DNA of 64,000 bases. Origin: Candidatus Zixiibacteriota bacterium. Its GTDB lineage: Bacteria > Zixibacteria > MSB-5A5 > CAIYYT01. The position numbers and the translations under genes are program-made. The notes beneath the pieces were generated by a model. The model was given only the letters and a program-made list of their open reading frames with translations, ran no database searches and was not told where the DNA came from. Below are positions 3,017-19,589 of this stretch, in pieces. Location: the NCBI GenBank assembly GCA_020853795.1, contig JADYYF010000136.1, positions 5,705 through 69,704 on the forward strand. The letters run 5' to 3'. The stretch's first letter is position 1. Each line of letters starts with the position of its first letter.

Positions 3017-3054
3017 GGGGGAAACGATGGGGAACGTTGTAACATCCTCGTCTC

Positions 3055-3381: not shown

Positions 3382-3479
3382 CCGGCCCCTCTCCCAACGG
3401 GAGAGGGGAGGGCGACGTCATTCCCGCGCAGGCGGGAATCCAGGTTGGCGGTTCGCGTGAGGCGGGAGGGAAGCGTCAG
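3382..3479. repeat. composite palindromic intergenic repeat, copy 2 (intact core GTCATTCCCGCGCAGGCGGGAATCCAG)
   Basis: cccctctcccaacgggagagggg is a 10-bp-stem hairpin. attcccgcgcaggcgggaat is a perfect ATTCCC-N8-GGGAAT palindrome (3419-3438). In frame the element reads VIPAQAGIQ, and its reverse complement reads LDSRLRGNDG. Confidence 0.7.
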
Positions 3480-3647
3480 GTCGCCTCGCGCGGATGAGGA
3501 TAGTGGTTCTTCCAGAATGACGGCGCGCGAAAAGACCTGACGCACCCTCAGCTAGCTTGAGAGCGGGTGCTCGGGACCACAAGAAGACGGGGCGGCCTGT
3601 GGGCCGCCCCGGAGTTGTCAGGTCGAATGCTGCAATCGTAAGGCGGG

Positions 3648-5220: not shown

Positions 5221-5841
5221 CTAATCCCTTCCCAGGTACGAACGTTCGATGCCCAGCACGACTTTGAGAGCGGTCGCGACGATGCCCAGCCCGACGCCGA
5301 TCCAGATGGCGCGTTTGGCGGCGAGGTTGGGAACGAGCAGGATCCAATTGGAAACGACGGTGACGGCGTCCGAAAGCGGTCCCATCGGGATGACGCGGGC
5401 CATCAGGATGAAGGCGGCGATCAGCAGCACGCTCGAGAGCACCGAGCGGGCGCGGAAGGCGCGGTAGGCGGCGGACGCGATGAAGAACGCCAGCAGCGAG
5501 AACATCGTCGACTGGATCGGAATCATGATGTGATCGAAAAAGTGCGTAAACATGTAGCTCTCGAGGCCGCCCATGAAGGTGAAGCCGAAGAGGATCATGC
5601 CGAACAAGCCGGCGAGAGCGACATACGAGTAGAAATAGCCTTCCTGCTTCGTCTTGATCTTGTGGTAGCTGACGCGGATCAGCGACCAGATACCGAGGGC
5701 GAGAGCGAAGATGCCGATGATGATGGTCCAGTCAATGAGGAATTCATAGGCTTTCTCGGAGAATTCCGCCGGGACGAAGTACTGGATCACCATAAAGACG
5801 CCGGCGAGGAAGACGACTAACAGCGGTAATTGACGTTTCAT
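5221..5841 (-). CDS. module 1, subunit C: 6-TM integral membrane protein of unknown family (206 aa)
   Basis: Paralog of 8846..9520 and 12416..13087. Conserved motifs are P(L/I)QSTMFSLLAFF(I/V)ASA(A/S)YRAFRA(R/K) and LGIERSYLG. Shine-Dalgarno AGGAGGAGGA. Confidence 0.7.
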   Translation of the reverse strand: MKRQLPLLVVFLAGVFMVIQYFVPAEFSEKAYEFLIDWTIIIGIFALALGIWSLIRVSYHKIKTKQEGYFYSYVALAGLFGMILFGFTFMGGLESYMFTHFFDHIMIPIQSTMFSLLAFFIASAAYRAFRARSVLSSVLLIAAFILMARVIPMGPLSDAVTVVSNWILLVPNLAAKRAIWIGVGLGIVATALKVVLGIERSYLGRD

Positions 5842-7124: not shown

Positions 7125-7940
7125 TCACAATATATTCAACCAGTCGTGGAAGAGGAAGGTAATTCTGCCGACGAGCAGCGAGATACGGCCCATGACGGTG
7201 TAGCCGAACGATGCGCCGAAGGTAACCATGAGTACCCAGATGCCGATCCGGGAGGCGACACCGAAGGCGCCCTTGTGTTCTTTGGAGAAGAAGAAATAAA
7301 TCAGACCGCAGATAACGCCGACGAAAATGACCAGATTGGTCGCGATCATAGCCAATTGTCCTTCGGCGGAAAGTGAGAGCGTGCTGAAGAAGGGGCCGAT
7401 TCCCTGCCAGTCGGGCAGGATGGAGATAAAGGTGTTGTTCATCTGCTGGATGAAATCGGACTGCAGGTAACGCGGCAGATTCAGGCCGGCGGTGGTGCCG
7501 ATGATGAAGGCCAGCGGCCAGCGCGAGATCCAGCTCAACTTCGGGACGAGACGCATCAGCAAGATGATGCCGAGCGCAACGGGAATCAAGTAATGCCAGG
7601 AGAAGCCTTTGTATGGAACCTGGAAATACTCGGCGAAACTCGGCAACGTGCGCGGAATGAAGTTACCGACGATGGTGCTCCAGAATCCCTGGCACATCCA
7701 GTAGGCGGCGGAGATGCCGACGAAGAGGTGTTCGGCGAAACGATAAAACGGATTATCGCCATAGAGGAACGAGTAGATCGACAAAGTCAGGAACGCCGCC
7801 AGGGTCAGCAGGAAGGCATCGCGAACGGCGTGGTCTTCGGCAGCAGCAAGGCCGGATTGCGACTTGAGCAGCCAGCTAATGATGAACAGCACGGCGGCAC
7901 CGGCCATGATAATGCGCACCCACCTGGTGGAGTTAGCCAT
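7125..7940 (-). CDS. module 2, subunit A: 6-TM membrane protein (271 aa)
   Basis: Paralog of module 1 subunit A. Its ATG overlaps the subunit B2 stop (AATGGCTAA), indicating translational coupling. Confidence 0.7.
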   Translation of the reverse strand: MANSTRWVRIIMAGAAVLFIISWLLKSQSGLAAAEDHAVRDAFLLTLAAFLTLSIYSFLYGDNPFYRFAEHLFVGISAAYWMCQGFWSTIVGNFIPRTLPSFAEYFQVPYKGFSWHYLIPVALGIILLMRLVPKLSWISRWPLAFIIGTTAGLNLPRYLQSDFIQQMNNTFISILPDWQGIGPFFSTLSLSAEGQLAMIATNLVIFVGVICGLIYFFFSKEHKGAFGVASRIGIWVLMVTFGASFGYTVMGRISLLVGRITFLFHDWLNIL

Positions 7941-8844
7941 TCGTCACCTTCTTTCGCCGCGAGCGGAAGTAGGAAACGTTGCCGATGATGATAAACGCGA
8001 CAATGACGACGTGGGCCATCGTCTGCGGTCCCATCATCTGGAGCGCGGGTGTGTCGATATTGGCAAACTGCGGGTAGCGCTTGATCAGTTCGGATTCATA
8101 CTCGGCCGCGCCCTTGGTTCCTCCCAGCAGACCCACCAGCTGCCTCGGGTAGTAAGGATAGAGCAGTGGCGTGGAGACCGCAGCGGCGCCGCCGGCGGTG
8201 GGGATACCACCGCGGTCGCCGGCGAACAGCACCCATTCTTTGACGCCGGGTTTGCCGCCGCCGATCGAGATCAGCAGATCCATATCCTTGAGCGATTTGA
8301 CATCGGCCATCATCGGGAGCGAATCGAGCGGAGTGCCGTTGACATCCCCGGGGTACATTTTGCGAATATCGGTGATCACGACGTTAAGGACGCCCTCGTT
8401 GCCGGCCTTGTAGCCCATGTTGCAGTAGTCGATGCCGTAGCGGGCATCGGGAAACTCTTTCTTGAGGATGTCCTGCACGGTGACTTCGAGGAGTGATTGC
8501 CCGGTCGCCCAAAGAGAGAAGAAATAGATTTTGTGTTTCTTGGCGAGGGCGTGGCGGACGAAAGCGTTGGCCATGGGGTGGACTTCCGGCGCCATCGCGG
8601 GGTCGAAGTCGTAGGAGATGACGATCTTGGAGCCGGCGGGAAGTTGTTCGATCTTGTCGAACGCGGCTTTGACGATCGGCGTTGCCGACTCACCGAACTT
8701 CAACTGGAACAAGACAGCCAGGCAAACGGTGATGCCGATGAAGGTGAAGACGACGCGACGGTCAACGTCCTTCCCTTGCAGGGAGCGGATCAGGATCCAG
8801 AGGAGGCCGCCGCCGATGACGATCGCTGAAATCACAAAACCCAT
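7933..8844 (-). CDS. module 2, subunit B (start chosen at MGFVISAIV, ~303 aa)
   Basis: Paralog of module 1 subunit B. The chosen ATG is 1 nt after the C2 stop, the same spacing as in module 1. The ORF-track start at 8922 would overlap C2 by 77 nt. The protein has two N-terminal TM helices. Confidence 0.65.
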   Translation of the reverse strand: MGFVISAIVIGGGLLWILIRSLQGKDVDRRVVFTFIGITVCLAVLFQLKFGESATPIVKAAFDKIEQLPAGSKIVISYDFDPAMAPEVHPMANAFVRHALAKKHKIYFFSLWATGQSLLEVTVQDILKKEFPDARYGIDYCNMGYKAGNEGVLNVVITDIRKMYPGDVNGTPLDSLPMMADVKSLKDMDLLISIGGGKPGVKEWVLFAGDRGGIPTAGGAAAVSTPLLYPYYPRQLVGLLGGTKGAAEYESELIKRYPQFANIDTPALQMMGPQTMAHVVIVAFIIIGNVSYFRSRRKKVTNG

Positions 8845-8845
8845 A

Positions 8846-9520
8846 TCAGTTGTCCGATCCCAGGTAGCTGCGTTCGATGCCCAACAGGAGGCGCAGCGAC
8901 ATCGAGACGACGCCGAGCGCAATGCCGATCATGATGGCGCGTTGACCAGCGAGGTTGGGCGAATTCATAATCCAGATGGCGAGGTTCGGGATCTGCGCGA
9001 TCGAGAAGGAGTCGGGCACCCAGGCGGTCAGGATGGTGCCGAGCGGCGTGCGACCGAGCAGGATGACGAAGGCGGCGATCAGCAAGATGGTAGCCTCGGT
9101 GTTCTTGGCACGAAAGGCGCGGTATGACGCCGAGGCCACGAAGAACGCCAGCAGCGAGTACATGGTCGACTGGAGCGGCGACATGACGTACTTGAAGAGG
9201 AGTTGGAACCAGGAACCGGTGGCGTCGAGCGGCGCGCCGATGCCGCCGGTGTTGCCGATTTTGAAGAGGCCGACGTAGAGCATCGCCAGGAAGCCGACCA
9301 AGGTGACGACGGAGTAGCCCCAGTTGGCCGACTTGCGGGAGACCTTGGTGAAGTGGACGCGCAGGAGATTGCCGCCGCCGAGGAAGAAGGCGAAGACCGC
9401 GATGATGTCGAAGAAGAGCGAGGCCTCTTCGCCCCAGCTCTCCATCGGCGGGATGAAGACGGAGAACATCAGCACCCAGCCGACGACGACGATGATGAGC
9501 AGCGGAATCTGACGTTTCAT
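8846..9520 (-). CDS. module 2, subunit C: 6-TM membrane protein (start at MKRQIPLL, ~224 aa)
   Basis: Paralog of module 1 subunit C. The ORF-track start at 9565 is a TTG overlapping D2. The internal ATG begins with MKRQ.PLL, like C1 (MKRQLPLL), and lies a few nt after the D2 stop. Confidence 0.65.
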   Translation of the reverse strand: MKRQIPLLIIVVVGWVLMFSVFIPPMESWGEEASLFFDIIAVFAFFLGGGNLLRVHFTKVSRKSANWGYSVVTLVGFLAMLYVGLFKIGNTGGIGAPLDATGSWFQLLFKYVMSPLQSTMYSLLAFFVASASYRAFRAKNTEATILLIAAFVILLGRTPLGTILTAWVPDSFSIAQIPNLAIWIMNSPNLAGQRAIMIGIALGVVSMSLRLLLGIERSYLGSDN

Positions 9521-9527
9521 AAGCGCA

Positions 9528-10772
9528 TCAGCTGATCGAGAACATTCGATGCAGCAGTTCCTCAAGTGACTTCATAAATCCGATATCCCAGGCCTGTCCG
9601 ATCGTGGCGGCAACAACGCCGACGAAGATCGCAGCGAGGGCGATCGCCTTGCCGACATCCTGCCCTTTCAATGAGCCGAGCTGCTTGGGTTCCTCGGAGA
9701 GATAGGCCGAGGCCGCGAAGAGTTCCTCACCGATCAAGGTGTAATCGCAAGCGGCGACGAAGAAGGGCAGCTGCGCGGGCATGGCAGTACCGGCGATCTG
9801 GATCGCCTCGATCGAGTTGCCGGTCTCGGCGAGAATCAGCGACTCGGCGAAGAAGGCGCCGAGATAGAAACAGGTGGCCGGTTTTTGGCGCACCATGATG
9901 CCGTTGACGGCGGCGACATAGCCGAACTGCTCGTCGGTGGTGTAGTGGACCATGTCGTCGGAGTAGGCGTCGGGACGACCGGCGGTGGAATAGGCTTCCT
10001 TGATGATTTCGCGGCCGGCGGTCATGACCAGCGAGGCGCGGCACGGCATGTTGATCTGGGAATCATACTGCGCGATGGTGCGGGCGACGCGGCCAAGGAT
10101 AGTCAAGCCGGCGAGGGTCTGGACGTCATCCATGTCCTGCGTGCCGGCGACGAAGAGCACGGGACGGCCCATCTCGGTGGCACGGCCGACGGCCTCGTCG
10201 ATAGCCTCCAGGCCGGCGATGCGGCGCAGGAAGAGCTTCTTGCCGCGTTTGGCGGTTTCAATAAAGAGGATCACCGCGCCGCAGACGATCAGGCCGATGA
10301 CGACGACGGAGATTTTCGACCAGTTGAACCATTGCACGGTCGGCCAGGCGGGCGGCGACTCGACGGAAGGATAGGCGACGCCGTTGACGATGGCGGCGAC
10401 GCGATAGACAAACTCCGTTTCACCGACGGCGTTGTCGTCCGTCAATTCGCGCGCGCCGAAGGGAGCCGTGCCGATGACCGAAATCGAATCGGAGCGGACT
10501 TCGTGCCGCGTGACCTGAAAGCCTTCGAAACCGGGCAGGTTTTCGTAACCGGGGTCGGTCCAGGTGATGCGCAGTTGGCCGCCGTGGTCGTCGGGGACGT
10601 CAGCGACGGTGATTTCAAGCGGCGGCAGATTGAGTTGCGGTGGTGCCGTGGAGGAGTCAGCCGGCGGTAATTGCTGCGCGGCGAGGGCCGAGGCGACTAA
10701 CAACAAGCCGGCAAAGAAGATGACGACGGTGCGAACACGATACAGGCTTGAGAAAGTCTGCCGCACCAGCAT
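9528..10772 (-). CDS. module 2, subunit D: signal peptide, Fn3-like domain, TM, domain, TM (414 aa)
   Basis: Paralog of module 1 subunit D with the same invariant motifs. Its ATG lies only 6 nt after the module 3 subunit A stop (TAAacatccATG). Confidence 0.7.
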   Translation of the reverse strand: MLVRQTFSSLYRVRTVVIFFAGLLLVASALAAQQLPPADSSTAPPQLNLPPLEITVADVPDDHGGQLRITWTDPGYENLPGFEGFQVTRHEVRSDSISVIGTAPFGARELTDDNAVGETEFVYRVAAIVNGVAYPSVESPPAWPTVQWFNWSKISVVVIGLIVCGAVILFIETAKRGKKLFLRRIAGLEAIDEAVGRATEMGRPVLFVAGTQDMDDVQTLAGLTILGRVARTIAQYDSQINMPCRASLVMTAGREIIKEAYSTAGRPDAYSDDMVHYTTDEQFGYVAAVNGIMVRQKPATCFYLGAFFAESLILAETGNSIEAIQIAGTAMPAQLPFFVAACDYTLIGEELFAASAYLSEEPKQLGSLKGQDVGKAIALAAIFVGVVAATIGQAWDIGFMKSLEELLHRMFSIS

Positions 10773-10778
10773 GGATGT

Positions 10779-11414
10779 TTAGCGGATGAGCCTGAGCCAG
10801 TCGGTGAGCAGGAAATCGACGCGGCCGATGAGCAGGGACATACGGCTCATGACGGTGTAGCCGAAGGAGGCGCCGAAGGTGATCATGAGAATCCAGGTGC
10901 CGAGTTTGGCGGCGGCGCCGAAGGCACCGCGATGTTCCTTCGAGAAGAAGAAATAGATCAGCGCGGCGAAGGTGCCGGCGGCGACGACGATCGCACCGAA
11001 GATCGCGCCAAAGCCGGAGATGCCGACCAGGTTGTTGACGGTGGCGTGGACCTGGGCGAGGGCGTCGGTGACGAGATAAACCATCAGCTTGAGGCCGGCG
11101 GTGGCGCCGACGATGAAGGCGATGGGCCAGCGGGAGATCCAGCCGACCTTGTTGAAAAGCCGCAAGAGCATGAGAACGCCGAGGATGACGCCGACGAAGA
11201 GCCAGTAGTTGCCTTCGTGGAAGATGCCGATGAAGGCTTTGCGGTAGAGGTTATCCCAGAAATAGGTGATGAACCAATAGCCGGCGGAGATGCCGACGAA
11301 CACCGCCTCGGCGATCTTGTAGAGAATATTGTCTTTGTAGAGGAAGGACAGGATGCCGAGGGTGAGCAGCGCGCCGATCCAGATGCCGAGGATTTCCATC
11401 GTCGTGTGTTCCAT
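10779..11414 (-). CDS. module 3, subunit A: 6-TM membrane protein (start at MEHTTMEILG, 212 aa)
   Basis: Paralog of modules 1 and 2. The ORF-track N-terminus (an Arg-rich 93 aa) overlaps B3 and looks spurious. The internal ATG at 11414 follows a GAGG Shine-Dalgarno and sits just after the B3 stop. Confidence 0.65.
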   Translation of the reverse strand: MEHTTMEILGIWIGALLTLGILSFLYKDNILYKIAEAVFVGISAGYWFITYFWDNLYRKAFIGIFHEGNYWLFVGVILGVLMLLRLFNKVGWISRWPIAFIVGATAGLKLMVYLVTDALAQVHATVNNLVGISGFGAIFGAIVVAAGTFAALIYFFFSKEHRGAFGAAAKLGTWILMITFGASFGYTVMSRMSLLIGRVDFLLTDWLRLIR

Positions 11415-11416
11415 GC

Positions 11417-12412
11417 TTACCTCGTCTTCTTCTCCTTGCCGAGGAAGAGTGCGACGTTGCCGATGATGATGAAGGCGATGACGACGGCATGCGAGAACAA
11501 CTGGGAGAGCAGGGCCACGGTGGCGCGGCCATATTCGTTGGTGGCCATTTCGAATTCGGCGGCGCCGGTCATGCCGCCGGCGAGGCCGGTAAGTTGTCCG
11601 GCGTTGAGATAGGGATACATTTCGGGCGCCTGAACGGCGGTATTGCCGGCGCCGACTTTGACGCGGAAGCGGTCGACGGCGATCTGCACCCATTCCTTGG
11701 TGCCGGGATAACCGGAGGACCAGTTCACGACGAAGTCGACATTAGAGAAATTCTCGACGCCGCGCAGCAAGGGGATTTCGTCATAGGGTGTGTTGTAGAT
11801 ATCGCGCGGGAACATCGACCGGAAACTGGTGCCCATACTCTGGATGACGAACTCGTTGCCGGACTGGAAGCCGAGGTTGACATAGTCGGTGCCATACCTG
11901 AGGTTCTTGGCGGCAACTTCGGGCTCCGCCATGGCGCGGGTAATTGAGAGATTCGCCTGTTGCGGACCCTGCGGCCAGAGGCCGATGATGATCAGTTTGA
12001 GGTCGCGTTTGAAGGCGAATGCCATGAACGCGTCGGCCATCGGCTGGAGTTCCGGCGCCGAGGGCGGGTCGTAGTCGAAAGCGACGAGGACCTTGGAGCC
12101 GGGCGGAAGCGCATTAACGCCGTTAAACAGCCCTTGCACTTCCGGCGAGACTTTGGTCTTGAGGGTGATGCTCATGAAATACGGGAGCACCAGCGCGACG
12201 CCGACGAAGAGGAAGACCCAGCGGCGTTCGACGAAGATGCCTTTGATGGTCAGAATCAGCACGGCGATCATTGCCAGCGCCAACAGGCCGATGACGATAT
12301 AGGAGACGACCGGCGAAAAGGCGAGTGGATCGGGCTCCGCCATGAAGGTACGGACCAGGGCGACCAGGCAGATCAGAAACATAACGATGGCAAACCCGTA
12401 TTTCTTCAACAT
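11417..12412 (-). CDS. module 3, subunit B (331 aa, three N-terminal TM helices)
   Basis: Paralog of subunit B with the same motifs. The ATG is 3 nt after the C3 stop. Confidence 0.7.
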   Translation of the reverse strand: MLKKYGFAIVMFLICLVALVRTFMAEPDPLAFSPVVSYIVIGLLALAMIAVLILTIKGIFVERRWVFLFVGVALVLPYFMSITLKTKVSPEVQGLFNGVNALPPGSKVLVAFDYDPPSAPELQPMADAFMAFAFKRDLKLIIIGLWPQGPQQANLSITRAMAEPEVAAKNLRYGTDYVNLGFQSGNEFVIQSMGTSFRSMFPRDIYNTPYDEIPLLRGVENFSNVDFVVNWSSGYPGTKEWVQIAVDRFRVKVGAGNTAVQAPEMYPYLNAGQLTGLAGGMTGAAEFEMATNEYGRATVALLSQLFSHAVVIAFIIIGNVALFLGKEKKTR

Positions 12413-12415
12413 CGA

Positions 12416-13087
12416 CTATCCTTCCAGATGCGACCTTTCAATGCCGAGGATGATGCGCAGCGAGGTTGAGACGATTCCCAGCGCCACGCCGATCTTGATC
12501 GCGCGCTGACCCGCGGTATGGGGAAAGTTCATGATCCAACTGGCCCAATCGGAGGCGCGCCAACCCTCGGGCAGGTAGCTGGTCAGGATATCGCCGAGCG
12601 GCACACGGCCGAGCATGACCAAAAAGCCCGCCAGGAGCAGCAAGGTAGCCGCGGTGTTGCGCGCGCGGAAGGCGCGATAAGACGCGGAAGCCACGAAGAA
12701 GGCGAGAATGGCGAACATGGTCGAGGACAGCGGCGTGTAGATATATGTATAAAGCCAGTCGAAATTCGTGCCGGGATCGCGGAACGAAGTCTGCGGGTTG
12801 TTGCTCAAGCCGGCGTAGCCGTCGTAGAAGCCGACGGCGACGATGACGAGGAAGCAGATGACAATGACCCACGAGAGCTGCCAATCGTGCTGTTTGCGCG
12901 AGATGCGGATGAAGGAGAGCTTCATCAGGTTAAGAGCGCCGAGCCAGATGGCGAAGGAGGCGACGATGGAGAACCATTCATTGTAGAAGGTCTCCAGTTC
13001 GCCAAAGGGAGCGTGCGGGATGAAATAGGAAAGAATAAAGACAATACCGACGACGAGCGTGATGATTATGGGGACTTCGCGTTTCAT
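12416..13087 (-). CDS. module 3, subunit C: 6-TM membrane protein (223 aa)
   Basis: Paralog of subunit C, with STMFAILAFFVASASYRAFRARN and LGIERSHLEG. Confidence 0.7.
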   Translation of the reverse strand: MKREVPIIITLVVGIVFILSYFIPHAPFGELETFYNEWFSIVASFAIWLGALNLMKLSFIRISRKQHDWQLSWVIVICFLVIVAVGFYDGYAGLSNNPQTSFRDPGTNFDWLYTYIYTPLSSTMFAILAFFVASASYRAFRARNTAATLLLLAGFLVMLGRVPLGDILTSYLPEGWRASDWASWIMNFPHTAGQRAIKIGVALGIVSTSLRIILGIERSHLEG

Positions 13088-13099
13088 TCCTTTTTCGGT

Positions 13100-14308
13100 C
13101 TATCCTACTTCGAGAATTTTCAAGAATCCGGTCCAGCCGATGAGGACAGCGACAATACCCACCAGTATGGCCAACAAGAAGGCCGCCTTGGCGAAGTCCT
13201 GCCCCTTGAGGGAGCCGAGCAATTTCGGTTCCCGCGAGAGGTAGGCGCTGGCGGCGAACAATTCTTCACCAATCAGAGTATAGTCGCAGGAGGCGACAAA
13301 GAACGGCAACTGGGAGGGTTGGCCAGTGCCGGCGATCTGGATGGCGCCGGCGGCGTTGCCGGTTTCGGCCAGGATCAGCGACTCGGCAAAGAAGCAACCC
13401 ATATAGAACATCGTGGCCGGTTTGTCGCGTACGACCATGCCGTCAATGGCGGCGGCATAGCCGAACTGGTCGTCGGTAACGTAATGGACCATGTCATCAT
13501 GGAAAGCATCGGGACGACCGGCCTTCTGATAGGCCTCACGCACTGCCTCCCGCGCGACCACCATGACGAGCGATTTGCTGACCGGCACATCGAGCTTGGT
13601 ATCATTTTCCGCAGTGATACGGGCAACGCGACCAAGGATCGTGACGCCGGCGATCGTCTGGACGTCATCCATATCCTGAATGCCCGGGATGTACATGACC
13701 TTGCGGCCCATTTCGGTAGCGCGACCAATAGCTTCCTCGACGGCGTCGATGCCGGCGATTTTGCGGACGTAAAGCTCTTTGCCGGAGCGGGCGGCACGGA
13801 TATACAGGAGGATGGCGCCGCAGATGACGAGCGTCCAGATGAAGATCCAGATGCGATTCATATTAAACCATTGCGCAACCGGCACGATCGGTCCAAAGAC
13901 GGGCGACTCGGCCATCGTCGCCATGACACCGGCGGGCGCACGGACGGCGGCGACGCGATAGAAATAATCCACCGAGTCGCTGAGGTCGCCGTTGATGAAG
14001 GTGTTCTGCCCTTTCGTGGTTTCGCCGACGACCTGGAACGGTCCACTTTGCGAAGACGAGCGCAGAACCTGGTACTTGGTGACAAGCGCCTGGTCATCGG
14101 GCGAGAGGTCCCAACGGATTTCAAGGCTGCGGCCGTTGTCGTTGGGAGTGTCGGTGACGATGACGTTGACGGGCGGCGCGGGTACTGGCTGTTGAATCGC
14201 CGCAGTGTCGGGAGCGACGGCAGCGGAGTCGGTTTGGGCGACTACGGGCAGGCTAAAGAAGAGAATGCCGGCGAGCAGACATCGAAAGAACACTATCAAG
14301 TCGCGCAC
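13100..14308 (-). CDS. module 3, subunit D: signal peptide, Fn3-like domain, TM, domain, TM (402 aa); first gene of the array
   Basis: Paralog of subunit D. It starts at a GTG preceded by the AGGAGGAG Shine-Dalgarno. About 125 nt upstream is a promoter-like element. Confidence 0.7.
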   Translation of the reverse strand: MRDLIVFFRCLLAGILFFSLPVVAQTDSAAVAPDTAAIQQPVPAPPVNVIVTDTPNDNGRSLEIRWDLSPDDQALVTKYQVLRSSSQSGPFQVVGETTKGQNTFINGDLSDSVDYFYRVAAVRAPAGVMATMAESPVFGPIVPVAQWFNMNRIWIFIWTLVICGAILLYIRAARSGKELYVRKIAGIDAVEEAIGRATEMGRKVMYIPGIQDMDDVQTIAGVTILGRVARITAENDTKLDVPVSKSLVMVVAREAVREAYQKAGRPDAFHDDMVHYVTDDQFGYAAAIDGMVVRDKPATMFYMGCFFAESLILAETGNAAGAIQIAGTGQPSQLPFFVASCDYTLIGEELFAASAYLSREPKLLGSLKGQDFAKAAFLLAILVGIVAVLIGWTGFLKILEVG

Positions 14309-14434
14309 TCTCCTCCTGACAGGAGCGACGGGTTCGGAGTCAGAGTTGAATCAAGTTACGCCCGAGATCAGGACGTTTGAAGACGCACTTTGTTCAACGA
14401 AAACGCCGTCGGAAAGGGTTAACAAATTTGAGGC

Positions 14435-14535: not shown

Positions 14536-14890
14536 CGAGGGGGGAGAGTCCGACTGAAGTCGGACCCACAGAGATCTGTGGAGTCAGGTGGGGGTCCAGC
14601 GCGAGTCTTGTCCGACTGAAGTCGGAACTACATAAGCATGTGGCGTCGGAATGTGGCGTCAGGATCGCAGGGATCCTGACCTACATAGATTTGTGGGGCA
14701 CGAGCAAACATACCGCGAGCCCACGTTCGTCAGAAGGGTTCGGCGGACCCACCGCAAGCGGGGGGCACCGGGCGAGAGCGCTTCGCGGGAGGACCTGGCG
14801 CAACGGGTTGAGTCCGACTGAAGTCGGACCCACGGATGTTTGTGGCGGCAGGATCGCAGGGATCCTGACCTACGAAGTGACCTACGAACT
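14536..14890. repeat. cluster of REP-like palindromic units in a non-coding region
   Basis: GAGTCCGACTGAAGTCGGAC(C/A)C occurs three times (14536, 14600 and 14810). Each copy is followed by a CACA...TGTGG imperfect palindrome. CAGGATCGCAGGGATCCTGACCTAC occurs twice (14649 and 14849). The spans 14600-14673 and 14810-14873 are two copies of a ~70-bp composite element. Confidence 0.6.
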
Positions 14891-15033: not shown

Positions 15034-15351
15034 ATGGCTCGAGGCGAGCGGTTCTCGCGCGGAACGAAGTTGATGGCGTTGTCGCGTCAGGGATGGAAGT
15101 GTGCCTTATGCGGGACGCAGATTTCTCTGCTCGGCAAAGGCGGCCGAGTAACTCATAAGTTCGGAGAGGGCTCACAGGCGCATCACGTTCGCCATGTAAA
15201 ACTCGGCGGGTCCAACATGGTCGAAAACTGTGTCGTGATTTGCGACTCCTGCCACTACTCGGTGCACGAAGGCGGCAACTATCGGTGGGGCAAAGTAATT
15301 GGAGGTCGAAGCGATTTCCCTTTCTATCGGCGTAGCCGAAGGAAGCGGTGA
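15034..15351 (+). CDS. small stand-alone HNH endonuclease-family protein (105 aa)
   Basis: The product has the pattern C.LCG...(17)...HH.(H)...G.N...N....C..CH...H, an HNH/zinc-finger nuclease arrangement. Strong Shine-Dalgarno AAGAGGAGG, and a TATATT -10-like element upstream. Confidence 0.65.
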   Translation: MARGERFSRGTKLMALSRQGWKCALCGTQISLLGKGGRVTHKFGEGSQAHHVRHVKLGGSNMVENCVVICDSCHYSVHEGGNYRWGKVIGGRSDFPFYRRSRRKR

Positions 15352-15484: not shown

Positions 15485-16411
15485 TCAGTAGCCGAGGTCC
15501 TTGAGGTGCTCCTTGTAGGTCGCGGCAGATTTCTGCAGCGCGGCCAATTCGGCAGCCTCAAGTTTTAGTTCGTAGATCTTTTCAACGCCGCCACTGCCGA
15601 GCACGACCGGCACGCCGATGTAGATGTCCTTGATGCCGTACTGTCCGGTCAGGTGGGCCGAGCACGGGAACACCTTCTTGGTGTCGTTGAGGACGGCCTT
15701 GACCATTTCGACCGATGCCGCCGCGGGGGCGTAGTACGCCGAGCCGGTCTTGAGCAGCTTGACGATTTCGGCGCCGCCATCGATGGTGCGCTTGCTGAGA
15801 GCTTCGATGCGATCGGCGGCCATCAGTTCGGTGATCGGGACGCCGGCGACGGTGGTGTAGCGCGGCAGCGGCACCATGGTGTCGCCGTGGCCGCCGAGAA
15901 CCATGGCCTCGGTTTCGGTCTGAGCGACGTTAAGTTCCATACCGACAAAGGTGCGGAAGCGAATCGAGTCGAGAATTCCGGCCTGACCAAAGACGCGGTT
16001 GGGCGGGAAGCCAGTGACCTTAAAGGCGTGGAACGTCATGAGGTCGAGCGGATTGGCGACCATGATGATCACAGCCTGATCGGCGTACTGCTTGACGGAT
16101 TTGGCGACGTTGCCGACGATTTCGGCATTGGCCTTAAGCAGGTCCTCCCGCGACATGCCGGGTTTGCGCGCCAGACCGGCGGTGTGGACGACGATATCCG
16201 AGCCTTTGAGCAGCGAGAAATCGTTGGTACCGGTGATATTGACGTCGTAGCCACGGACGGGGCCGGCCTGCATGAGGTCGAGCGCCTTGCCCTGCGGCAG
16301 TCCTTCGACGACATCGAAGAGCATGATGTCGCAGACGTTATCTTCGGCCAGATATTGCGCGACGGCGGCGCCGACGTTGCCCGCTCCAATGACTGATACT
16401 TTCTTACGCAT
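15485..16411 (-). CDS. mdh: malate dehydrogenase (LDH-like MDH family), 308 aa from MRKKVSVIGAGNVG
   Basis: GAGNVG Rossmann motif and LDH/MDH-like sequence throughout. The ATG at 16411 follows a GGAGGAG Shine-Dalgarno; the ORF-track start 11 codons upstream lacks one. Confidence 0.85.
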   Translation of the reverse strand: MRKKVSVIGAGNVGAAVAQYLAEDNVCDIMLFDVVEGLPQGKALDLMQAGPVRGYDVNITGTNDFSLLKGSDIVVHTAGLARKPGMSREDLLKANAEIVGNVAKSVKQYADQAVIIMVANPLDLMTFHAFKVTGFPPNRVFGQAGILDSIRFRTFVGMELNVAQTETEAMVLGGHGDTMVPLPRYTTVAGVPITELMAADRIEALSKRTIDGGAEIVKLLKTGSAYYAPAAASVEMVKAVLNDTKKVFPCSAHLTGQYGIKDIYIGVPVVLGSGGVEKIYELKLEAAELAALQKSAATYKEHLKDLGY

Positions 16412-16440
16412 GAACTCCTCCCGTGCGGTCGGGTCGTTCT

Positions 16441-17679
16441 TCATGCCGCCCGGCGGTATAAGACCTGCGAGGCGGCGTCAAGCACGACGGCGATCCGACA
16501 ATGTTTCCCATATTTGTTAATCAACTCAGTTATTGTCCTATGGACATCGCTGCGCGCCGCGATTGGCAGCGCCCGCAGCAGCCCCGGTTCCAGACCTGAG
16601 CATAGCACAAGATCGACGCGTTTGGCAAGCCGGATTGTGCGCCGGACTTTGTGAATTCCCATCAAGGCCCGCTCGCCGGTAGCGGCCGGGGGCGTCTCGT
16701 CGCCCGCGATCTGCTCGGCGAGTTTGAGGAAGCGGTCGTCGCCGACGCCGTCGGGACAACCGGAGAGTAGCAGGATGGCGCCGCCGTCGCGGACCGCGGT
16801 GGCGACATTCTCGTAGGATTTCTGCAACTGGTAGAGATTGCGATCAAGGGGCGGATAGACGACAGAGATTACGACGTCGTACGGGTCTGAGACTCCGTGA
16901 GCGAAGTTCTCGGTCACGAAGGCGCAAGCGTGATCGTAGGATTGATCGGCGTCGCCGGCAGCGGCGAAGAAGATGTGCCCATGGTGATCGCAGACAACCT
17001 GAATTGAGGCGCGCGGAACGTGATCGAGCACATGGGTGCGGTGATGAATGTCTTCCCAGACTGGATTTCCCTGGCGACGCAGGGGACGACTCTCGACCGA
17101 GACGGCGGCGGCGTGGTTTTGCTCGATATCGGCAAAGGAAGCACAGCCGGGCAGGATAATCTTGCGACCGCCGGTAAAGCCGGCGAAGTAATGCGGTTCG
17201 ACCGAGCCGATAGTGAGGATGGCATCGCACTCGCGCAGGCGGTGATTCAGGCGGCAGCAGGCATCGCCGGTCTGGAAATCGACGAGAGTCTCAGCGGCGC
17301 AGGCATTGTGGGATTCGACGCCGTCGGCGATCGAAGGCCAGAAGCTGCCAAAGATCTGACGCAACTCGGCGGGGGTCGCGGCCGGATGCAAGCCGGTCGA
17401 GATCAGGAAGCGTGTCCGCCGGGGACGGAGGGCGTCCTGGAGGGCCGCCAGGATTCGCGCGGTGGGTGTGGGGCGGAACGCGTCGTTGACCACAACGAGC
17501 AATTCCTGTGCGCGCTCGAGGAAGTCGTCGAGGTCATCGGGAACCGGGCCGCGGTTGAGCCAGTGATTGGCCGGAAGCTCCTTCAGGCGGCGGCCGGGCA
17601 GATCGAAGAGATCGACGGCGGTGCCATCGGGGATGGTTATATCGATATTGTGCCCGTTATACCACGCGGTCAGATTCAT
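16441..17679 (-). CDS. LarA-family (DUF2088, nickel-pincer lactate racemase-like) protein
   Basis: ISTGLHP matches the LarA (A/S)TG(S/L)H region and FAGFTGGRK matches the Lys-containing GF(S/T)GGRK motif. The length is ~412 aa. Start taken at MNLTAWYNG because the upstream ATG sits inside the hairpin at 17699-17734. Confidence 0.55.
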   Translation of the reverse strand: MNLTAWYNGHNIDITIPDGTAVDLFDLPGRRLKELPANHWLNRGPVPDDLDDFLERAQELLVVVNDAFRPTPTARILAALQDALRPRRTRFLISTGLHPAATPAELRQIFGSFWPSIADGVESHNACAAETLVDFQTGDACCRLNHRLRECDAILTIGSVEPHYFAGFTGGRKIILPGCASFADIEQNHAAAVSVESRPLRRQGNPVWEDIHHRTHVLDHVPRASIQVVCDHHGHIFFAAAGDADQSYDHACAFVTENFAHGVSDPYDVVISVVYPPLDRNLYQLQKSYENVATAVRDGGAILLLSGCPDGVGDDRFLKLAEQIAGDETPPAATGERALMGIHKVRRTIRLAKRVDLVLCSGLEPGLLRALPIAARSDVHRTITELINKYGKHCRIAVVLDAASQVLYRRAA

Positions 17680-17698
17680 AGCGGCTTGGCAGATATGT

Positions 17699-17734
17699 CG
17701 CAATCCCTGCGGCGGCAAGGCCGCAGGGATTGCG
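17699..17734 (-). terminator. strong hairpin between ndk and the larA-like gene (terminator or attenuator)
   Basis: cgcaatccctgcggc-ggcaag-gccgcagggattgcg is a perfect 15-bp inverted repeat. No clear U-tract follows it. Confidence 0.4.
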
Positions 17735-17746
17735 CCGACGCAGCGT

Positions 17747-18154
17747 TCAGACTTTCCCGAAATGGAAGTGGATTTCGATTTCAGCGTTCTCCGGGCTGTC
17801 GGAGCCGTGCACCGAGTTCTTGCCGACGTCGATCGCGAAGTTTTGCCGGATCGTGCCGCAGGCAGCTTTCGCGGGATCGGTGGCGCCGATCAATTCGCGG
17901 AAGGCCGCGACGGCGTTGTCGCGTTCGAGGGCAGCGGCGACGATCGGCGACGAGCACATGAAGGCGACGAGTTCGTCGAGGAACGGTTTACCTTCATGGA
18001 CTTTGTAAAACTCGCGGGCGCGCTCGGGCGTCAGGTGCACCATTTTCAAGGCGATGATTTTGAAGCCGGAGGCCTCGACGCGTTCGAGGATTTTGCCCGC
18101 GAGGCGGCGTTCGACGGCATCCGGTTTGATCATCATCAAAGTACGTTGTTTCAC
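17747..18154 (-). CDS. ndk: nucleoside diphosphate kinase
   Basis: The product starts MIKPDAV and contains the active-site NSVHGSDS motif; 135 aa. Confidence 0.9.
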   Translation of the reverse strand: MKQRTLMMIKPDAVERRLAGKILERVEASGFKIIALKMVHLTPERAREFYKVHEGKPFLDELVAFMCSSPIVAAALERDNAVAAFRELIGATDPAKAACGTIRQNFAIDVGKNSVHGSDSPENAEIEIHFHFGKV

Positions 18155-18156
18155 GC

Positions 18157-18759
18157 TTATAAACCCTTCTTCGCTTCTTTTCCAACTTTGAGGCCGAGTT
18201 CGAGGGCGGCCAGGTTTTTCTCTTCGGTACCGCGCGGGGCGCGTTTCTTGACAATCTGGGTCAGCGACTCGACACTGACGATACCGGTGACGGCGCAGAT
18301 GGCACCGAGGGAGATGACGTTGGCGACCATCGGCACGCCGATTTCGTGGCGCGCAAGCTGGCTAAACGGAATCCCGATCGTGCGCGCAAACGGGGTCTGC
18401 GAGACCAGATGGTTGTCGACGATCATGACGCCGTTGTCTTTGATGTAGTTGTGGTAGAGGTCGCACGATTCCTGAGTCATCGCCAGCAGGAGGTCCAGCG
18501 CCATCGGTTTGGGGTAGTAGATTTCCCCGGCGGAGATGACGAGATCGGTGCGGGAGGCGCCGCCGCGGGCTTCCGGCCCGTAGCTTTGCGTCTGCACGAC
18601 GTTCTTGCCGTCGAGCGTGGAGACGGCTTCGGCCAGAATCACTCCGGCGAGGACCAGCCCCTGACCGCCGGAACCGGAGAGGCGGATTTCGTAGCGATCG
18701 AGGTTCAGAGTCGGTTCGGCCTGTTCGCGCGGGGCTTTGGCTTTCGATTTGGTCGGCAT
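18157..18759 (-). CDS. 2-oxoacid:ferredoxin oxidoreductase gamma subunit (probably 2-oxoglutarate, Kor-type)
   Basis: LSGSGGQGLVLAG is the PorG/KorC signature; 200 aa. Confidence 0.8.
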   Translation of the reverse strand: MPTKSKAKAPREQAEPTLNLDRYEIRLSGSGGQGLVLAGVILAEAVSTLDGKNVVQTQSYGPEARGGASRTDLVISAGEIYYPKPMALDLLLAMTQESCDLYHNYIKDNGVMIVDNHLVSQTPFARTIGIPFSQLARHEIGVPMVANVISLGAICAVTGIVSVESLTQIVKKRAPRGTEEKNLAALELGLKVGKEAKKGL

Positions 18760-18761
18760 GG

Positions 18762-19589
18762 CTATTTCCCTTTCAGGCTGTCGATGAGTTCCTGGTAACG
18801 ATCGCAGTATTCCGGTTTTTCCAGGTCCAGAAAGACTCCGGTCAGCATCTTGCCTTCAAGTTTCTCCGGCGGCAATTTGGCCGCAGCCTTGAGGGGAATA
18901 ACATTCTTCTTCATGTCCTCGATCATCTTGACCGCGTCGCCGGCACGGTTGAGACGGCCGTAGTAGGTGTGGCAATTGGAGAAAGCTTCGACGACCGAGA
19001 AGCCGCGCTTGGCGATGGCCTGCTCGATGAGTTCGTCGAGCTGGTTGACATGGTAGACGGTGCCGCGAGCGACGTAGGTTGCGCCGGCGCCCATGGCCAG
19101 CTTGGGGATATCGAAGTTGTTCTCTTTGTTGCCATAGGGCGAGGTCGTGGCATAGGAATCGGCGGGCGTGGTCGGCGAGAATTGGCCGCCGGTCATGCCG
19201 TAGATCATGTTGTTGATGACGATCGTGGTGATGTCGATGTTGCGGCGGGCCGAATGAATGAAGTGATTGCCACCAATAGCGAGGGCGTCGCCGTCGCCGG
19301 TAATAACGATCACCTTCATGTGCGGTTTGGCCAATTTGACACCGGTCGCAAAGGCGAGGGCGCGGCCGTGCGTGGTGTGCAGCGTATTGAAATCGAGATA
19401 GGCAGGCATGCGCGACGAGCAGCCGATGCCCGACACCAGGCAGACATCATCACGATTCAACTGCAGTGTATCGATCGCGCGGACGAGGCAGCCCATGACG
19501 ATGCCGATGCCGCAGCCGGGGCACCAGACGTTGGGGAAGGCCTTTTTCGGCCGCAAGTATTGATGAACGACATCAGATTTCTGTAACAT
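18762..19589 (-). CDS. korB: 2-oxoacid:ferredoxin oxidoreductase beta subunit (TPP-binding)
   Basis: Contains the CPGCGIG motif and the GDGD TPP-binding motif; 275 aa. Confidence 0.8.
   Translation of the reverse strand: MLQKSDVVHQYLRPKKAFPNVWCPGCGIGIVMGCLVRAIDTLQLNRDDVCLVSGIGCSSRMPAYLDFNTLHTTHGRALAFATGVKLAKPHMKVIVITGDGDALAIGGNHFIHSARRNIDITTIVINNMIYGMTGGQFSPTTPADSYATTSPYGNKENNFDIPKLAMGAGATYVARGTVYHVNQLDELIEQAIAKRGFSVVEAFSNCHTYYGRLNRAGDAVKMIEDMKKNVIPLKAAAKLPPEKLEGKMLTGVFLDLEKPEYCDRYQELIDSLKGK

Follow-up and report, generated by a model that had tools for sequence, protein, structure and literature searches.

A conserved DUF6754 membrane protein with an Fn3-like ectodomain heads a four-gene operon in Candidatus Zixiibacteriota

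Three tandem D-A-B-C cassettes and the D paralogs

The window (the whole 64,000-nt stretch of Candidatus Zixiibacteriota DNA that was analyzed) carries a 12-gene array on the minus strand, in which three tandem cassettes repeat the gene order D-A-B-C and intergenic gaps do not exceed 26 nt. The first D gene, D1, is the subject of this report; the features of the array are as follows.

14312 to 14317, minus strand: Shine-Dalgarno-like AGGAGG, read off the sequence, 3 nt from the GTG at 14308
13100 to 14308, minus strand: D1, open reading frame of 402 aa with a GTG start
12416 to 13087, minus strand: A1, 223-aa polytopic subunit with ~6 TM helices and the motifs LAFFVASASYRAFRA and GIERS (open reading frame and alignment)
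11417 to 12412, minus strand: B1, 331 aa, with N-terminal TM helix or helices, an alpha/beta-looking domain predicted to be periplasmic, and a C-terminal TM helix with a basic tail
10779 to 11414, minus strand: C1, ~211-aa polytopic subunit with the motifs SFLYKDNP, YFFFSKEHKG, and FGASFGYTVM
7125 to 10772, minus strand: cassette 2 (D2, 9528 to 10772; A2, 8846 to 9520; B2, 7933 to 8844; C2, 7125 to 7940)
3648 to 7098, minus strand: cassette 3 (D3, 5857 to 7098; A3, 5221 to 5841; B3, 4327 to 5208; C3, 3648 to 4325)
3588 to 3611, minus strand: terminator-like GC hairpin with 10 G-C pairs, 37 nt beyond the C3 stop and closing the 12-gene unit

D1 has an alternative in-frame start, TTG, at codon 4, and the true start of C1 is the ATG at 11414, not 11693. 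Cassettes 2 and 3 are positional orthologues of the second and third cassettes in other Zixibacteria-type genomes. No riboswitch or other RNA was found 5' of the operon, either here or in five related loci.

D1 is 53% identical to D2 and 47% identical to D3. All three proteins match Pfam DUF6754 (PF20539) at E values of 1e-114 to 1e-124; thus, their similarity is far above chance. All three exceed the gathering score of 27 bits over the whole model: D1 scores 412 bits (E of 1e-123; residues 145 to 397 on model positions 3 to 255 of 257), D2 scores 412.6 bits, and D3 scores 379.8 bits. A protein identical to D1 is already in the databases (MCC6963694.1, from a Zixibacteria metagenome-assembled genome), and NCBI names DUF6754 proteins “fibronectin type III domain-containing protein.” D is therefore known as a deposited sequence from a family with a Pfam DUF number, and it is a real, widely conserved inner-membrane protein.

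The three paralogs share one layout, in which a signal peptide, a disordered linker, and an Fn3 domain are followed by TM1, a Rossmann-like domain of ~185 aa, TM2, and a short tail; DUF6754 spans TM1 to TM2. Exactly three hydrophobic segments are seen in the hydropathy profile of each paralog (residues 5 to 23, 152 to 170, and 372 to 390 in D1). The order of signal peptide, Fn3 domain, TM helix, conserved domain, and second TM helix had been proposed in a preliminary description of the locus and is borne out by hydropathy, Pfam, and an AlphaFold2 (AF2) model. Its motif details needed correction. The K/R segment quoted after TM1, KSGRTLYVRPLAG, is the D3 sequence, and D1 has RAARSGKELYVRKIAG instead. 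Within the supposedly invariant GRATEMGRP(V/I)L(Y/F)V, invariance holds for GRATEMGR only, and D1 continues with KVMYI; D3 departs from FFVA(S/A)CDYTLIGEEL, likewise called invariant, with FFVVACDYTLIGEELYAASVYLNREP.

Ectodomain and predicted topology of D

D1 can be divided into six segments.

14237 to 14308, minus strand: residues 1 to 24, Sec-type signal peptide (R2 in the n-region, h-region 5 to 23, predicted site VVA|QT; hydropathy of 2.37 and conservation of the site in homologues)
14177 to 14236, minus strand: residues 25 to 44, disordered linker rich in Ala, Pro, and Thr (pLDDT of <50 at 23 to 35; unconserved)
13883 to 14176, minus strand: residues 45 to 142, membrane-proximal periplasmic Fn3 domain with a conserved D-x-P-N-D-x-G...W motif (AF2, Foldseek, and profile)
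13784 to 13882, minus strand: residues 143 to 175, invariant W147-F148 interface motif and TM1, predicted to run from out to in (hydropathy of 2.16; AF2 helix 150 to 174)
13229 to 13783, minus strand: residues 176 to 360, DUF6754 cytoplasmic core, a Rossmann-like alpha/beta domain with five parallel strands (Pfam PF20539; AF2)
13100 to 13228, minus strand: residues 361 to 402 and the stop codon, conserved KGQD..K cap, TM2, predicted to run from in to out, and a short periplasmic tail (hydropathy of 2.72; AF2 helix 361 to 389)

Judged by sequence, the D presequence ends in a classical SPase I site and looks cleavable. Among 66 homologues, whose presequences are 26 aa long at the median, position −1, just before a conserved Gln, holds A, G, or S in 63, and position −3 holds V, A, L, I, S, or T in 62. 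The call was made with a heuristic (basic n-region, hydrophobic h-region, and small residues at −3 and −1), not with SignalP. Conservation of the SPase I site agrees with the earlier proposal of a cleavable signal peptide and not with an uncleaved anchor.

The Fn3-like beta-sandwich that had been suspected after the signal peptide is also seen in the AF2 model, in which residues 47 to 141 form a seven-strand sandwich (pLDDT of ~95) that superposes on solved Fn3 domains. In a Foldseek search of the PDB, this region matches the titin Fn3 domain A3 (4o00; E of 2.5e-6, target TM of 0.79 to 0.81, root mean square deviation of 3.1 to 3.2), and a family profile matches PDB Fn3 domains of titin, gp130, and neogenin, as well as the “Fn3-like protein” 3mpc (E of 1.8e-5). 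D1 itself has no match to Pfam fn3 (PF00041) at an E of ≤1, so its assignment is based on the family profile and the structure model; PF00041 is present in the precomputed annotation of close homologues (e.g., P0003 and P0008 to P0015).

The ectodomain varies widely. Between paralogs it is 26 to 37% identical, compared to 57 to 69% for the cytoplasmic domain, and across the family the region N-terminal of DUF6754 ranges from 12 to 1,079 aa. Some DUF6754 proteins lack an ectodomain altogether, with the signal peptide and a WF(N/D) motif alone remaining. Among 77 diverse representatives, PQQ_2 (BamB-like) propellers occupy this position in 9, Fn3 domains in 6 to 8, and HEAT repeats in 1; where Fn3 domains occur, they can be additional copies.

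Both hydrophobic helices bracket DUF6754 in 247 homologues, and the DUF6754 match is C-terminal in all 150 representatives listed; beta-rich extensions beyond TM2 occur in a few homologues. Topology was assigned from the positive-inside rule and the signal-peptide heuristic. Within 15 residues of TM1, the 247 family members have on average 4.4 Lys and Arg residues after the helix versus 1.9 before it; around TM2, the means are 2.6 before versus 0.96 after. From these counts and the cleavable-looking signal peptide, we place DUF6754 in the cytoplasm and both the Fn3 domain and the C-terminal tail outside. The preliminary description had proposed a domain on each side of the membrane, the conserved one being intracellular, and the bias at both helices agrees with this prediction.

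If the conserved domain were instead periplasmic, it might serve as the tethered substrate-binding subunit of a transporter, for which its alpha/beta fold and an operon with polytopic membrane proteins could be cited. The chance of this seems to us close to nil: the positive-inside bias is opposite at both helices in >90% of the 247 homologues, the predicted external Fn3 domain is followed by one TM helix and the next domain is thereby forced inside, and no substrate-binding protein fold is among the Foldseek matches.

The layout of D, together with the supported topology, also resembles that of cytokine receptors and receptor tyrosine phosphatases. Single-pass Fn3 receptors of the eukaryotic type, such as those of the gp130 class, share with D a signal peptide, an Fn3 domain close to the membrane, a TM helix, and a cytoplasmic domain, and the Fn3 domain of D matches such proteins in the PDB. 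A receptor role, in which Fn3 would bind an external ligand and signal through TM1 to the cytoplasmic domain, is nevertheless very improbable. Across the family the ectodomain is variable and dispensable, it is the least conserved, fastest-evolving part of D, and in the AF2 model of D1 the Fn3 domain lies only ~8 residues from the membrane. A second TM helix clamps the cytoplasmic domain, and D is an obligate subunit of a four-gene operon. No kinase, HAMP, MCP, cyclase, GGDEF, phosphatase, or other output domain was found in D with Pfam or NCBIfam. The suggestion that D carries an Fn3 sensor is thus not supported.

The conserved cytoplasmic domain

By alignment, the cytoplasmic domain is the conserved core of the D family, with DUF6754 ~60% identical across phyla. 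In D1 it contains the motifs GRATEMG, GRPD, TDDQFGY, FFAESLILAETGN, IQIAGT, and QLPFFVAxCDYTLIGEELFAASAYL, and AF2 places strands at residues 204 to 208, 239 to 243, 274 to 276, 299 to 304, and 323 to 328. The most conserved stretch of D, residues 300 to 360 (29 of 61 positions invariant), is also the lowest-confidence part of the AF2 monomer models. Polar residues invariant in the 77 representatives are R182, R196, T198, E199, Q281, R294, E309, E315, Q324, Q333, D342, E349, and Y356.

With the full D1 model, Foldseek found only Fn3 matches in the PDB, and a PDB profile search matched nothing outside the Fn3 region of D. The model of the domain alone gave generic Rossmann-like matches (USP, LOG/MoCo-carrier, and halves of GT-B folds), the best at an E of 0.24. 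A cobalamin-binding role was considered: DxHxxG is absent, the loop after beta-1 (PGIQDMDD) has no His, and there is no B12-binding domain among the top 50 Foldseek matches of DUF6754. Two further candidates were dropped. A flavinylation-type motif in GRATEMG does not have the SGAT form and would face the wrong side of the membrane, and D3 does not conserve a DxD motif seen after beta-1.

With matches of this generic kind, the fold is as compatible with ligand binding or catalysis as with docking. DUF6754 might then be a membrane-tethered enzyme or a cofactor- or nucleotide-binding module at the cytoplasmic face, acting, e.g., on a lipid-linked or envelope precursor, with A and C handling or flipping the product and B processing it in the periplasm. 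Extreme conservation with invariant polar residues across the 77 representatives would suit such an activity, as would the position of many of these residues in loops that follow predicted beta-strands, where Rossmann-like domains usually bind ligands. The weak Foldseek resemblance to nucleotide-binding USP, LOG/MoCo-carrier, and GT-B structures and a weak Pfam CoA_binding_3 match (E of 0.038) point the same way. On the other hand, neither Pfam and NCBIfam nor PDB sequence and fold searches gave a significant enzyme-family match, a recognizable glycine-rich nucleotide-binding motif is missing, and the PGIQDMDD loop is not kept in D3. We regard an enzymatic or cofactor-binding role as distinctly unlikely.

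Operon partners, genomic neighbors, and a proposed role

The D-A-B-C unit occurs in Zixibacteria, Fermentibacteria, WOR-3, Cloacimonadota, Marinimicrobia, Acidobacteriota, and Planctomycetota, and its gene order is kept across at least ten phylum-level lineages. The order, with D first, is strict in every locus whose length allows it to be seen; A follows D in every locus examined, and the positions of B and C are likewise conserved. No fusions of D to A, B, or C were found. Since D without exception opens a fixed four-gene membrane-complex operon, it seems to be an integral subunit of a cell-envelope machine and not a free-standing receptor.

For A, B, and C, Pfam and NCBIfam gave no match at meaningful E values and none of significance to the ABC, TRAP, ECF, MFS, or Rnf/Nqr families, and sequence and profile searches of the PDB found nothing significant. 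The transporter role named in the preliminary description is conjectural. Long variants of A, B, and C carry no Pfam domains. Two internal relationships were rejected with hhalign: B and D as distant paralogs with similar C termini (GAAEYE...TM and GEELFAASAY...TM) received a probability of 1%, with the TM helix alone aligned, and the idea that A and C form an inverted-repeat pair of the NqrD/NqrE kind received 0.3%.

Ectodomains of the kinds found in D (Fn3, BamB-like propeller, and HEAT) are all protein-interaction scaffolds, and D always comes first in the operon. D could therefore be a passive scaffold or assembly subunit that anchors A, B, and C and uses its ectodomain to tether periplasmic or outer-membrane partners, with no energy coupling. 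For a protein that does no more than scaffold, ~60% identity across phyla and dozens of invariant cytoplasmic residues would be unexpected, and we consider this role quite improbable.

Directly upstream of D, 24 of 49 informative loci (those with at least 3.5 kb upstream of D) encode a GlmL-like ASKHA protein (PF13941; E of 1e-125) and a protein of ~375 aa, on the same strand as D in 16 loci and divergent in 8; the pair is absent beside D in the other 25. The GlmL-like protein has intact ASKHA motifs (DCGSTTTK, DIGGATTD, and SGGVLSHAP) and is 58 to 77% identical across phyla, and with 222 bits against a cutoff of 475 it falls far below the NCBIfam GlmL cutoffs. Its neighbor has an N-terminal barrel-sandwich-hybrid (BSH) domain, matched in one copy by RnfC_N (E of 9e-5). 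PDB sequence and profile searches with both proteins returned nothing significant. The ~375-aa protein was also considered as an ASKHA paralog, which was rejected (hhalign probability of 0.3% on clean alignments), and as a homologue of D (no homology found). The ASKHA/BSH pair is absent from the 64-kb window. In other loci it is on the D-A-B-C contig, either with no cassette next to it or ~3 kb upstream of the first D.

Of 81 related loci examined, 12, from three lineage groups, have TolQRAB or ExbBD-TonB genes within 8 kb, and in one genome the ASKHA/BSH pair immediately precedes tolQ-tolR-tolA-tolB-pal-cpoB. This neighborhood, seen in a minority of loci, could be lineage-specific synteny. 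D, A, B, C, and the ASKHA and BSH proteins match no PADLOC anti-phage model, and a search of the accessible literature on DUF6754/PF20539, PF13941, and GlmL-like proteins returned nothing relevant.

The analysis shows the domain content of D, its topology as predicted, its membership in DUF6754, the conservation of the operon, and a genomic association with ASKHA/BSH and Tol/Exb genes. As the best explanation of the whole, we tentatively favor D as the coupling subunit of an inner-membrane D-A-B-C complex, with its ectodomain as an adaptor; here we infer physical contacts, ATP coupling, a shared module, and an envelope function. After removal of the signal peptide, mature D would form a membrane hairpin: a periplasmic Fn3 domain sits on the membrane, TM1 runs inward, DUF6754 lies at the cytoplasmic face, and TM2 runs outward. 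A and C have invariant basic motifs at predicted cytoplasmic loop ends, and D has the invariant acidic residues E309, E315, D342, and E349. DUF6754 would be the functional core, packing against the conserved basic loops of A and C and docking a cytoplasmic module of the GlmL-like ATPase and the BSH protein, presumably encoded elsewhere in the genome of origin. ATP-driven changes might then travel through the TM1/TM2 hairpin to the periplasm, where they would reach the Fn3 domain of D and the periplasmic domain of B. The ectodomain would act as a lineage-specific adaptor or spacer, not as a ligand sensor, and the three tandem cassettes may be three specificity variants with a common, conserved cytoplasmic interface. 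The work of the complex would most likely be envelope related, either transport across, or upkeep of, the inner-membrane/periplasm/outer-membrane system.

Coupling of this kind has precedents. PilN, with PilM, in type IV pili and GspL in type II secretion are bitopic platform subunits that link an envelope machine to an actin-fold (ASKHA) protein. By analogy, D may be a small inner-membrane subunit that contacts an ASKHA protein in the cytoplasm and a machine in the periplasm, and an ASKHA gene adjoins D in the 24 loci above. No sequence relationship was detected, however; the ASKHA protein here is of the GlmL/MutL family (PF13941), not of the FtsA/PilM type, and D has the topology of a hairpin that carries a Rossmann-like domain. 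In B12-enzyme reactivases, pairs of the GlmL-GlmS and DdrA-DdrB type, an ASKHA-fold accessory or reactivase protein acts on a Rossmann-like partner. The D loci similarly link a GlmL-family ASKHA protein to a protein with a Rossmann-like domain, but DUF6754 is without DxHxxG, no mutase genes are nearby, the partner is membrane embedded, and the ASKHA protein scores below the GlmL cutoffs. A third likeness, to Na+-NQR and Rnf, is one of loose parts lists in outline only: a peripheral subunit with an N-terminal BSH domain, two six-helix subunits of ~210 aa (A and C), a B subunit with a periplasmic domain, and a membrane-anchored D with a cytoplasmic Rossmann-like domain. In contrast to those complexes, Pfam shows no match to Rnf-Nqr, FMN_bind, or NQR, A is not homologous to C, and conserved cysteines, a flavinylation motif, and an NqrB/RnfD-like subunit are missing.

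A broader proposal, which we hold to be possible though unlikely, is that D-A-B-C, the GlmL-like ATPase, the BSH protein, and two small membrane-associated proteins together make up an undescribed ATP-powered machine, a housekeeping system of the envelope. Its power source would be an actin-fold ATPase instead of an ABC, AAA+, or P-loop ATPase, and DUF6754 of D would be the element coupling the ATPase to the periplasm. Such a machine would be housekeeping in many little-studied diderm phyla, among them the lineages named above, and Zixibacteria might run three specialized membrane modules from one ATPase module.

On sequence grounds, no D-A-B-C member has a detectable relative among characterized proteins, and the upstream ASKHA protein matches only the poorly understood GlmL/MutL family. 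Identities across phyla of ~60% for DUF6754 and 58 to 77% for the ASKHA protein are at the level usual for core machinery. These findings indicate a substantial gap in what is known about cell envelopes in non-model Gram-negative phyla and offer a concrete entry point, a small cytoplasmic domain clamped by two helices that is expected to bind defined partners. If coupling to the ASKHA protein is true, it would represent a new way to power a membrane complex.

Architecture and topology of D1

The D1 gene heads an array of twelve tightly packed minus-strand genes, organized as three tandem cassettes in which a D gene is followed by genes for the membrane subunits A, B, and C:

13100-14308, minus strand, D1 ORF, 402 codons
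14308-10779, minus strand, cassette 1 (D1-A1-B1-C1)
10772-7125, minus strand, cassette 2 (D2-A2-B2-C2)
7098-3648, minus strand, cassette 3 (D3-A3-B3-C3)

D1 starts with a GTG at 14308, with an AGGAGG ending 3 nt before it; a TTG in frame, three codons past the GTG, is a possible alternative start. D1 shares 53% identity with its paralog D2 and 47% with D3. The hydrophobicity of each paralog agrees with the preliminary description in revealing exactly three hydrophobic segments (N-terminal, middle, and near the C terminus). The first shows the sequence features of a cleavable Sec signal, as had been suspected: of 66 D homologues, 63 have A, G, or S just ahead of a nearly invariant Gln and 62 have a small or aliphatic residue at -3, and the presequence has a median length of 26 residues; the predicted site in D1 lies between VVA and QT. 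The Fn3-like beta-sandwich proposed to follow is also upheld. D1 alone reaches no score with Pfam fn3; a 67-sequence family profile matches PDB chains of titin, gp130, neogenin, and an "Fn3-like protein" (profile positions about 36 to 148). An AlphaFold2 model of D1, computed from a 67-sequence alignment (mean pLDDT, 82), folds residues 47-141 into a sandwich of seven strands (pLDDT about 95) that superposes on titin Fn3 domains (E = 2.5e-6; target TM about 0.8).

Charge was measured over 15 flanking residues in 247 family members, beside the helix preceding GRATE (TM1) and beside the last helix (TM2). K+R is 1.9 before versus 4.4 after TM1 and 2.6 before versus 0.96 after TM2, and the sign of the bias is shared by 94% (TM1) and 91% (TM2) of the sequences, which supports the earlier positive-inside argument for a domain on each side of the membrane. 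Because of these charges and the exported Fn3 domain, we predict with high confidence, for architecture and topology jointly, that Fn3 lies outside, TM1 runs out to in, the DUF6754 core lies inside, TM2 runs in to out, and the tail, which averages 14 residues, is outside. An uncleaved signal peptide would leave the sidedness of the domains the same. Neither a periplasmic conserved domain of substrate-binding type nor an uncleaved N-terminal anchor was found, and the flanking charges, which put the core inside, make it exceedingly improbable that D is a periplasmic binding subunit. Three homologues from other metagenomes (P0130, P0177, and P0194) carry extensions of 80 to 155 aa after TM2, two beta-rich in appearance and one Pro/Ala-rich, consistent with a C terminus outside the cell. 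Since the Fn3 domain ends ∼8 residues before TM1 in the D1 model, it must rest on the membrane surface beside the periplasmic parts of its partners.

Residues 145-397 of D1 match Pfam DUF6754 (PF20539; E = 1e-123). Membership in this family is certain; D1 belongs to no characterized family beyond it, and NCBIfam has no model for the domain. DUFs are common, and D1's being a DUF member is no surprise in itself. As modeled, the core is a Rossmann-like three-layer alpha/beta fold: GRATEMG lies on a helix, followed by five parallel beta-strands (204-208, 239-243, 274-276, 299-304, and 323-328) alternating with helices, and helix 345-358 runs on into TM2. Thirteen polar residues (R182, R196, T198, E199, Q281, R294, E309, E315, Q324, Q333, D342, E349, and Y356) are invariant in 77 representatives, which are about 33 to 58% identical to the first sequence of the alignment. 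Among the motifs that had been called invariant, GRATEMGR is so; the rest of the first motif is not, and D3 departs in the second. The hydrophobic-helix string KSGRTLYVRPLAG is that of D3. We consider it unlikely that D is a membrane-tethered enzyme or ligand-binding domain. Residues 300-360 are the most conserved stretch of D (29 of the 61 positions do not vary among 67 sequences) and also have the lowest model confidence; moderately hydrophobic with embedded acidic residues, they may form an interface, or be partly embedded in the membrane, in a way that a monomer model does not capture.

The D-A-B-C cassettes and their surroundings

Intergenic gaps within the array are no longer than 26 nt, and a strong terminator-like hairpin (3611-3588) closes it. 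A mechanical ORF list overcalled three starts, which alignments place at 11414 (C1), 8844 (B2), and 9520 (A2). The best database match of D1, 100% identical, is MCC6963694.1 from a candidate division Zixibacteria MAG, annotated as "fibronectin type III domain-containing protein"; that record lists A1 and B1 as "hypothetical protein." By position, cassettes 1, 2, and 3 are orthologous to the first, second, and third cassettes of other genomes, and the triplication is therefore old.

HMMs built from D, A, B, and C were run across 81 related loci, and wherever a locus was long enough to reveal the gene order, it was D-A-B-C. A single cassette is present in most phyla, and tandem arrays of two, three, or more are present in Zixibacteria-type genomes. 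A (about 210 to 240 aa) has about 6 TM helices, and C (about 210 to 270 aa) is polytopic. The charge distribution of B (290 to 330 aa) suggests one or more N-terminal TMs, an alpha/beta-looking domain predicted to be periplasmic, a C-terminal TM, and a basic cytoplasmic tail. Searches of Pfam, NCBIfam, and PDB returned no relative of A, B, or C; comparison ruled out kinship of B with D and of A with C. At the ends of loops predicted to be cytoplasmic, A (yRAFRA and GieR) and C (FSKEH.G and R.sLl.gR) have nearly invariant basic motifs, which are candidate partners of D's invariant acidic residues.

The following genes flank the array, those at 15485-19589 being ordinary metabolic genes on its upstream side:

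2413-2769, minus strand, 118-aa lysine/arginine-rich protein, RREYQRRYY...HKEKAKEYQRQYNL, no Pfam family
15034-15351, plus strand, small ORF for an HNH endonuclease (Pfam HNH, E = 3e-6), between the palindromic repeats upstream of D1 and the malate dehydrogenase gene
15485-16444, minus strand, malate/lactate-dehydrogenase-like ORF, named by reading the translation
16441-17718, minus strand, LarA-like protein (Pfam Lar_N, E = 2e-28)
17747-18154, minus strand, nucleoside-diphosphate kinase-like ORF, named by reading the translation
18157-19589, minus strand, 2-oxoacid:ferredoxin oxidoreductase gamma- and beta-like ORFs, named by reading the translations

Six other Zixibacteria-type loci conserve the 118-aa protein directly downstream of their cassette arrays (61% identity to L001 16104-16451), and its gene has a promoter-like site of its own plus a terminator with a 20-bp stem (2384-2341). 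Upstream of D1, intergenic positions 14541-14873 hold palindromic repeat units of REP/MITE-like appearance: a ∼48-nt unit in three copies (core GTCCGACTGAAGTCGGAC; 5 matches versus 0 expected) and a 33-nt unit in two (palindrome CAGGATCGCAGGGATCCTG). Just past the array terminator, a unit with several palindromes is duplicated (3039-3152 and 3367-3479; ∼327-nt spacing, 91% identity over 74 nt) and is crossed by a spurious 185-aa ORF (2988-3545). GC skew is positive in all 2-kb bins of the window (1-64000), despite which most long ORFs at ∼3.6 to 52.7 kb are on the minus strand; it is weaker at ∼54 to 62 kb, where genes turn to the plus strand.

Family distribution and neighboring genes

The family comprises at least 8,000 proteins by word-indexed search, 3,896 clusters at 50% identity (E ≤ 1e-3; 836 with E ≤ 1e-30), some of which are Fn3-only matches, and at least 577 confirmed stretches among species-representative genomes. 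Carriers include Zixibacteria, bins labeled Ignavibacteria, Neomarinimicrobiota, Cloacimonadota, Fermentibacteria/Aegiribacteria, WOR-3, Stahlbacteria, Eisenbacteria, Acidobacteriota (Vicinamibacterales), Planctomycetota (Phycisphaerae and Planctomicrobium), and one "Deltaproteobacteria" MAG, across which DUF6754 is about 60% identical. DUF6754 is always C-terminal, and the stretch before TM1 ranges from 12 to 1,079 residues. Short forms keep the signal peptide and a W-F-(N/D) motif and have no Fn3; of 77 longer representatives, nine have BamB-like PQQ_2 propellers, six to eight have Fn3 domains, and one has HEAT repeats. Among D1 to D3, identity is 26 to 37% in Fn3 versus 57 to 69% in the cytoplasmic core. 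Being variable, less conserved than the core, and seated on the membrane, the ectodomain has the profile of a lineage-specific adaptor, not a conserved sensor. The finding itself is real and its topology call right, and the "receptor" label is unsupported; a receptor is improbable. D resembles Fn3 receptors in its outer half only.

Clustering of all other ORFs of the loci yielded one dominant neighbor pair, the genes for a GlmL-like putative ATPase (ASKHA) and a barrel-sandwich-hybrid (BSH) protein. The ∼620-aa ASKHA protein matches Pfam MutL/GlmL (PF13941; E = 1e-125), falls below the NCBIfam GlmL cutoffs, has intact phosphate and adenosine motifs, and is 58 to 77% identical across phyla. The ∼375-aa BSH protein has its hybrid domain at the N terminus and matches Biotin_lipoyl in one copy (E = 1e-6) and RnfC_N in another (E = 9e-5); precomputed annotations assign its homologues to PF25984 or PF13375. 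Its likeness to ASKHA, an artifact of a contaminated HMM, was dropped as a sign of paralogy. Of the 49 loci whose upstream sequence is long enough, 24 have the pair immediately upstream of the first D: in 16 (from Zixibacteria, Fermentibacteria, Acidobacteriota, Planctomycetota, and Marinimicrobia) it shares the strand of D, and in 8 it is divergent. Elsewhere it shares a contig with D-A-B-C, either ∼3 kb ahead of the first D or with no cassette beside it. It is absent from the 64-kb window, where the HNH ORF occupies its place, so insertion or rearrangement is possible.

Two further small genes, for a ∼150-aa two-TM protein and a ∼140-aa protein, often precede the pair, giving a conserved four-gene module (e.g., L047 3694-7543, L084 5575-11128, and L085 8124-15872) that often adjoins D-A-B-C; conservation of its ASKHA and BSH proteins across phyla is very high. 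Twelve of the 81 loci, representing three lineage groups, have TolQRAB or ExbBD-TonB genes no more than 8 kb away, and in one genome (L085) the pair is directly upstream of tolQ-tolR-tolA-tolB-pal-cpoB. In a WOR-3 locus (L054 10856-15977; equivalents in L064, L067, and L071), C is followed by a DUF4388 (PATAN) protein, four small unannotated genes, and ExbB/ExbD/TonB genes; in Fermentibacteria loci, the gene next after C encodes a TonB-dependent receptor. No riboswitch was found and defense-system models gave no match, neither offering a clue to function, and no paper of the searched library mentions the family.

A putative envelope-associated complex

D is a hairpin protein with an exported Fn3 domain and a cytoplasmic DUF6754 domain, the conserved core; it is invariably encoded in a four-gene membrane operon, and ASKHA and BSH genes are its most frequent neighbors. 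D, A, B, and C would form one inner-membrane complex, of which D is very likely a subunit. DUF6754 may pack against A and C on their cytoplasmic side and be where the ASKHA/BSH module docks or is coupled, a coupling that we propose tentatively, at somewhat below even odds. The TM hairpin could then relay nucleotide-driven changes to the Fn3 and B domains in the periplasm. A D acting as a passive scaffold is slightly less likely than an enzyme or ligand-binding domain. The three cassettes may be specificity variants with a common cytoplasmic interface. The work of the complex might be envelope related, a suggestion more doubtful than the coupling to ASKHA.

PilM-PilN or GspL platforms, GlmL-GlmS or DdrA-DdrB pairs, and the parts list of Na+-NQR/Rnf resemble this system in outline only, and every sequence test applied fails. 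Sequence and limited structure-based searches connected the D-A-B-C gene set to no known kind of system, and a remote relationship is possible. The D1 protein is catalogued yet uncharacterized, and its gene set is widespread and strongly conserved; D offers a well-delimited, testable way into a putative envelope-associated complex.
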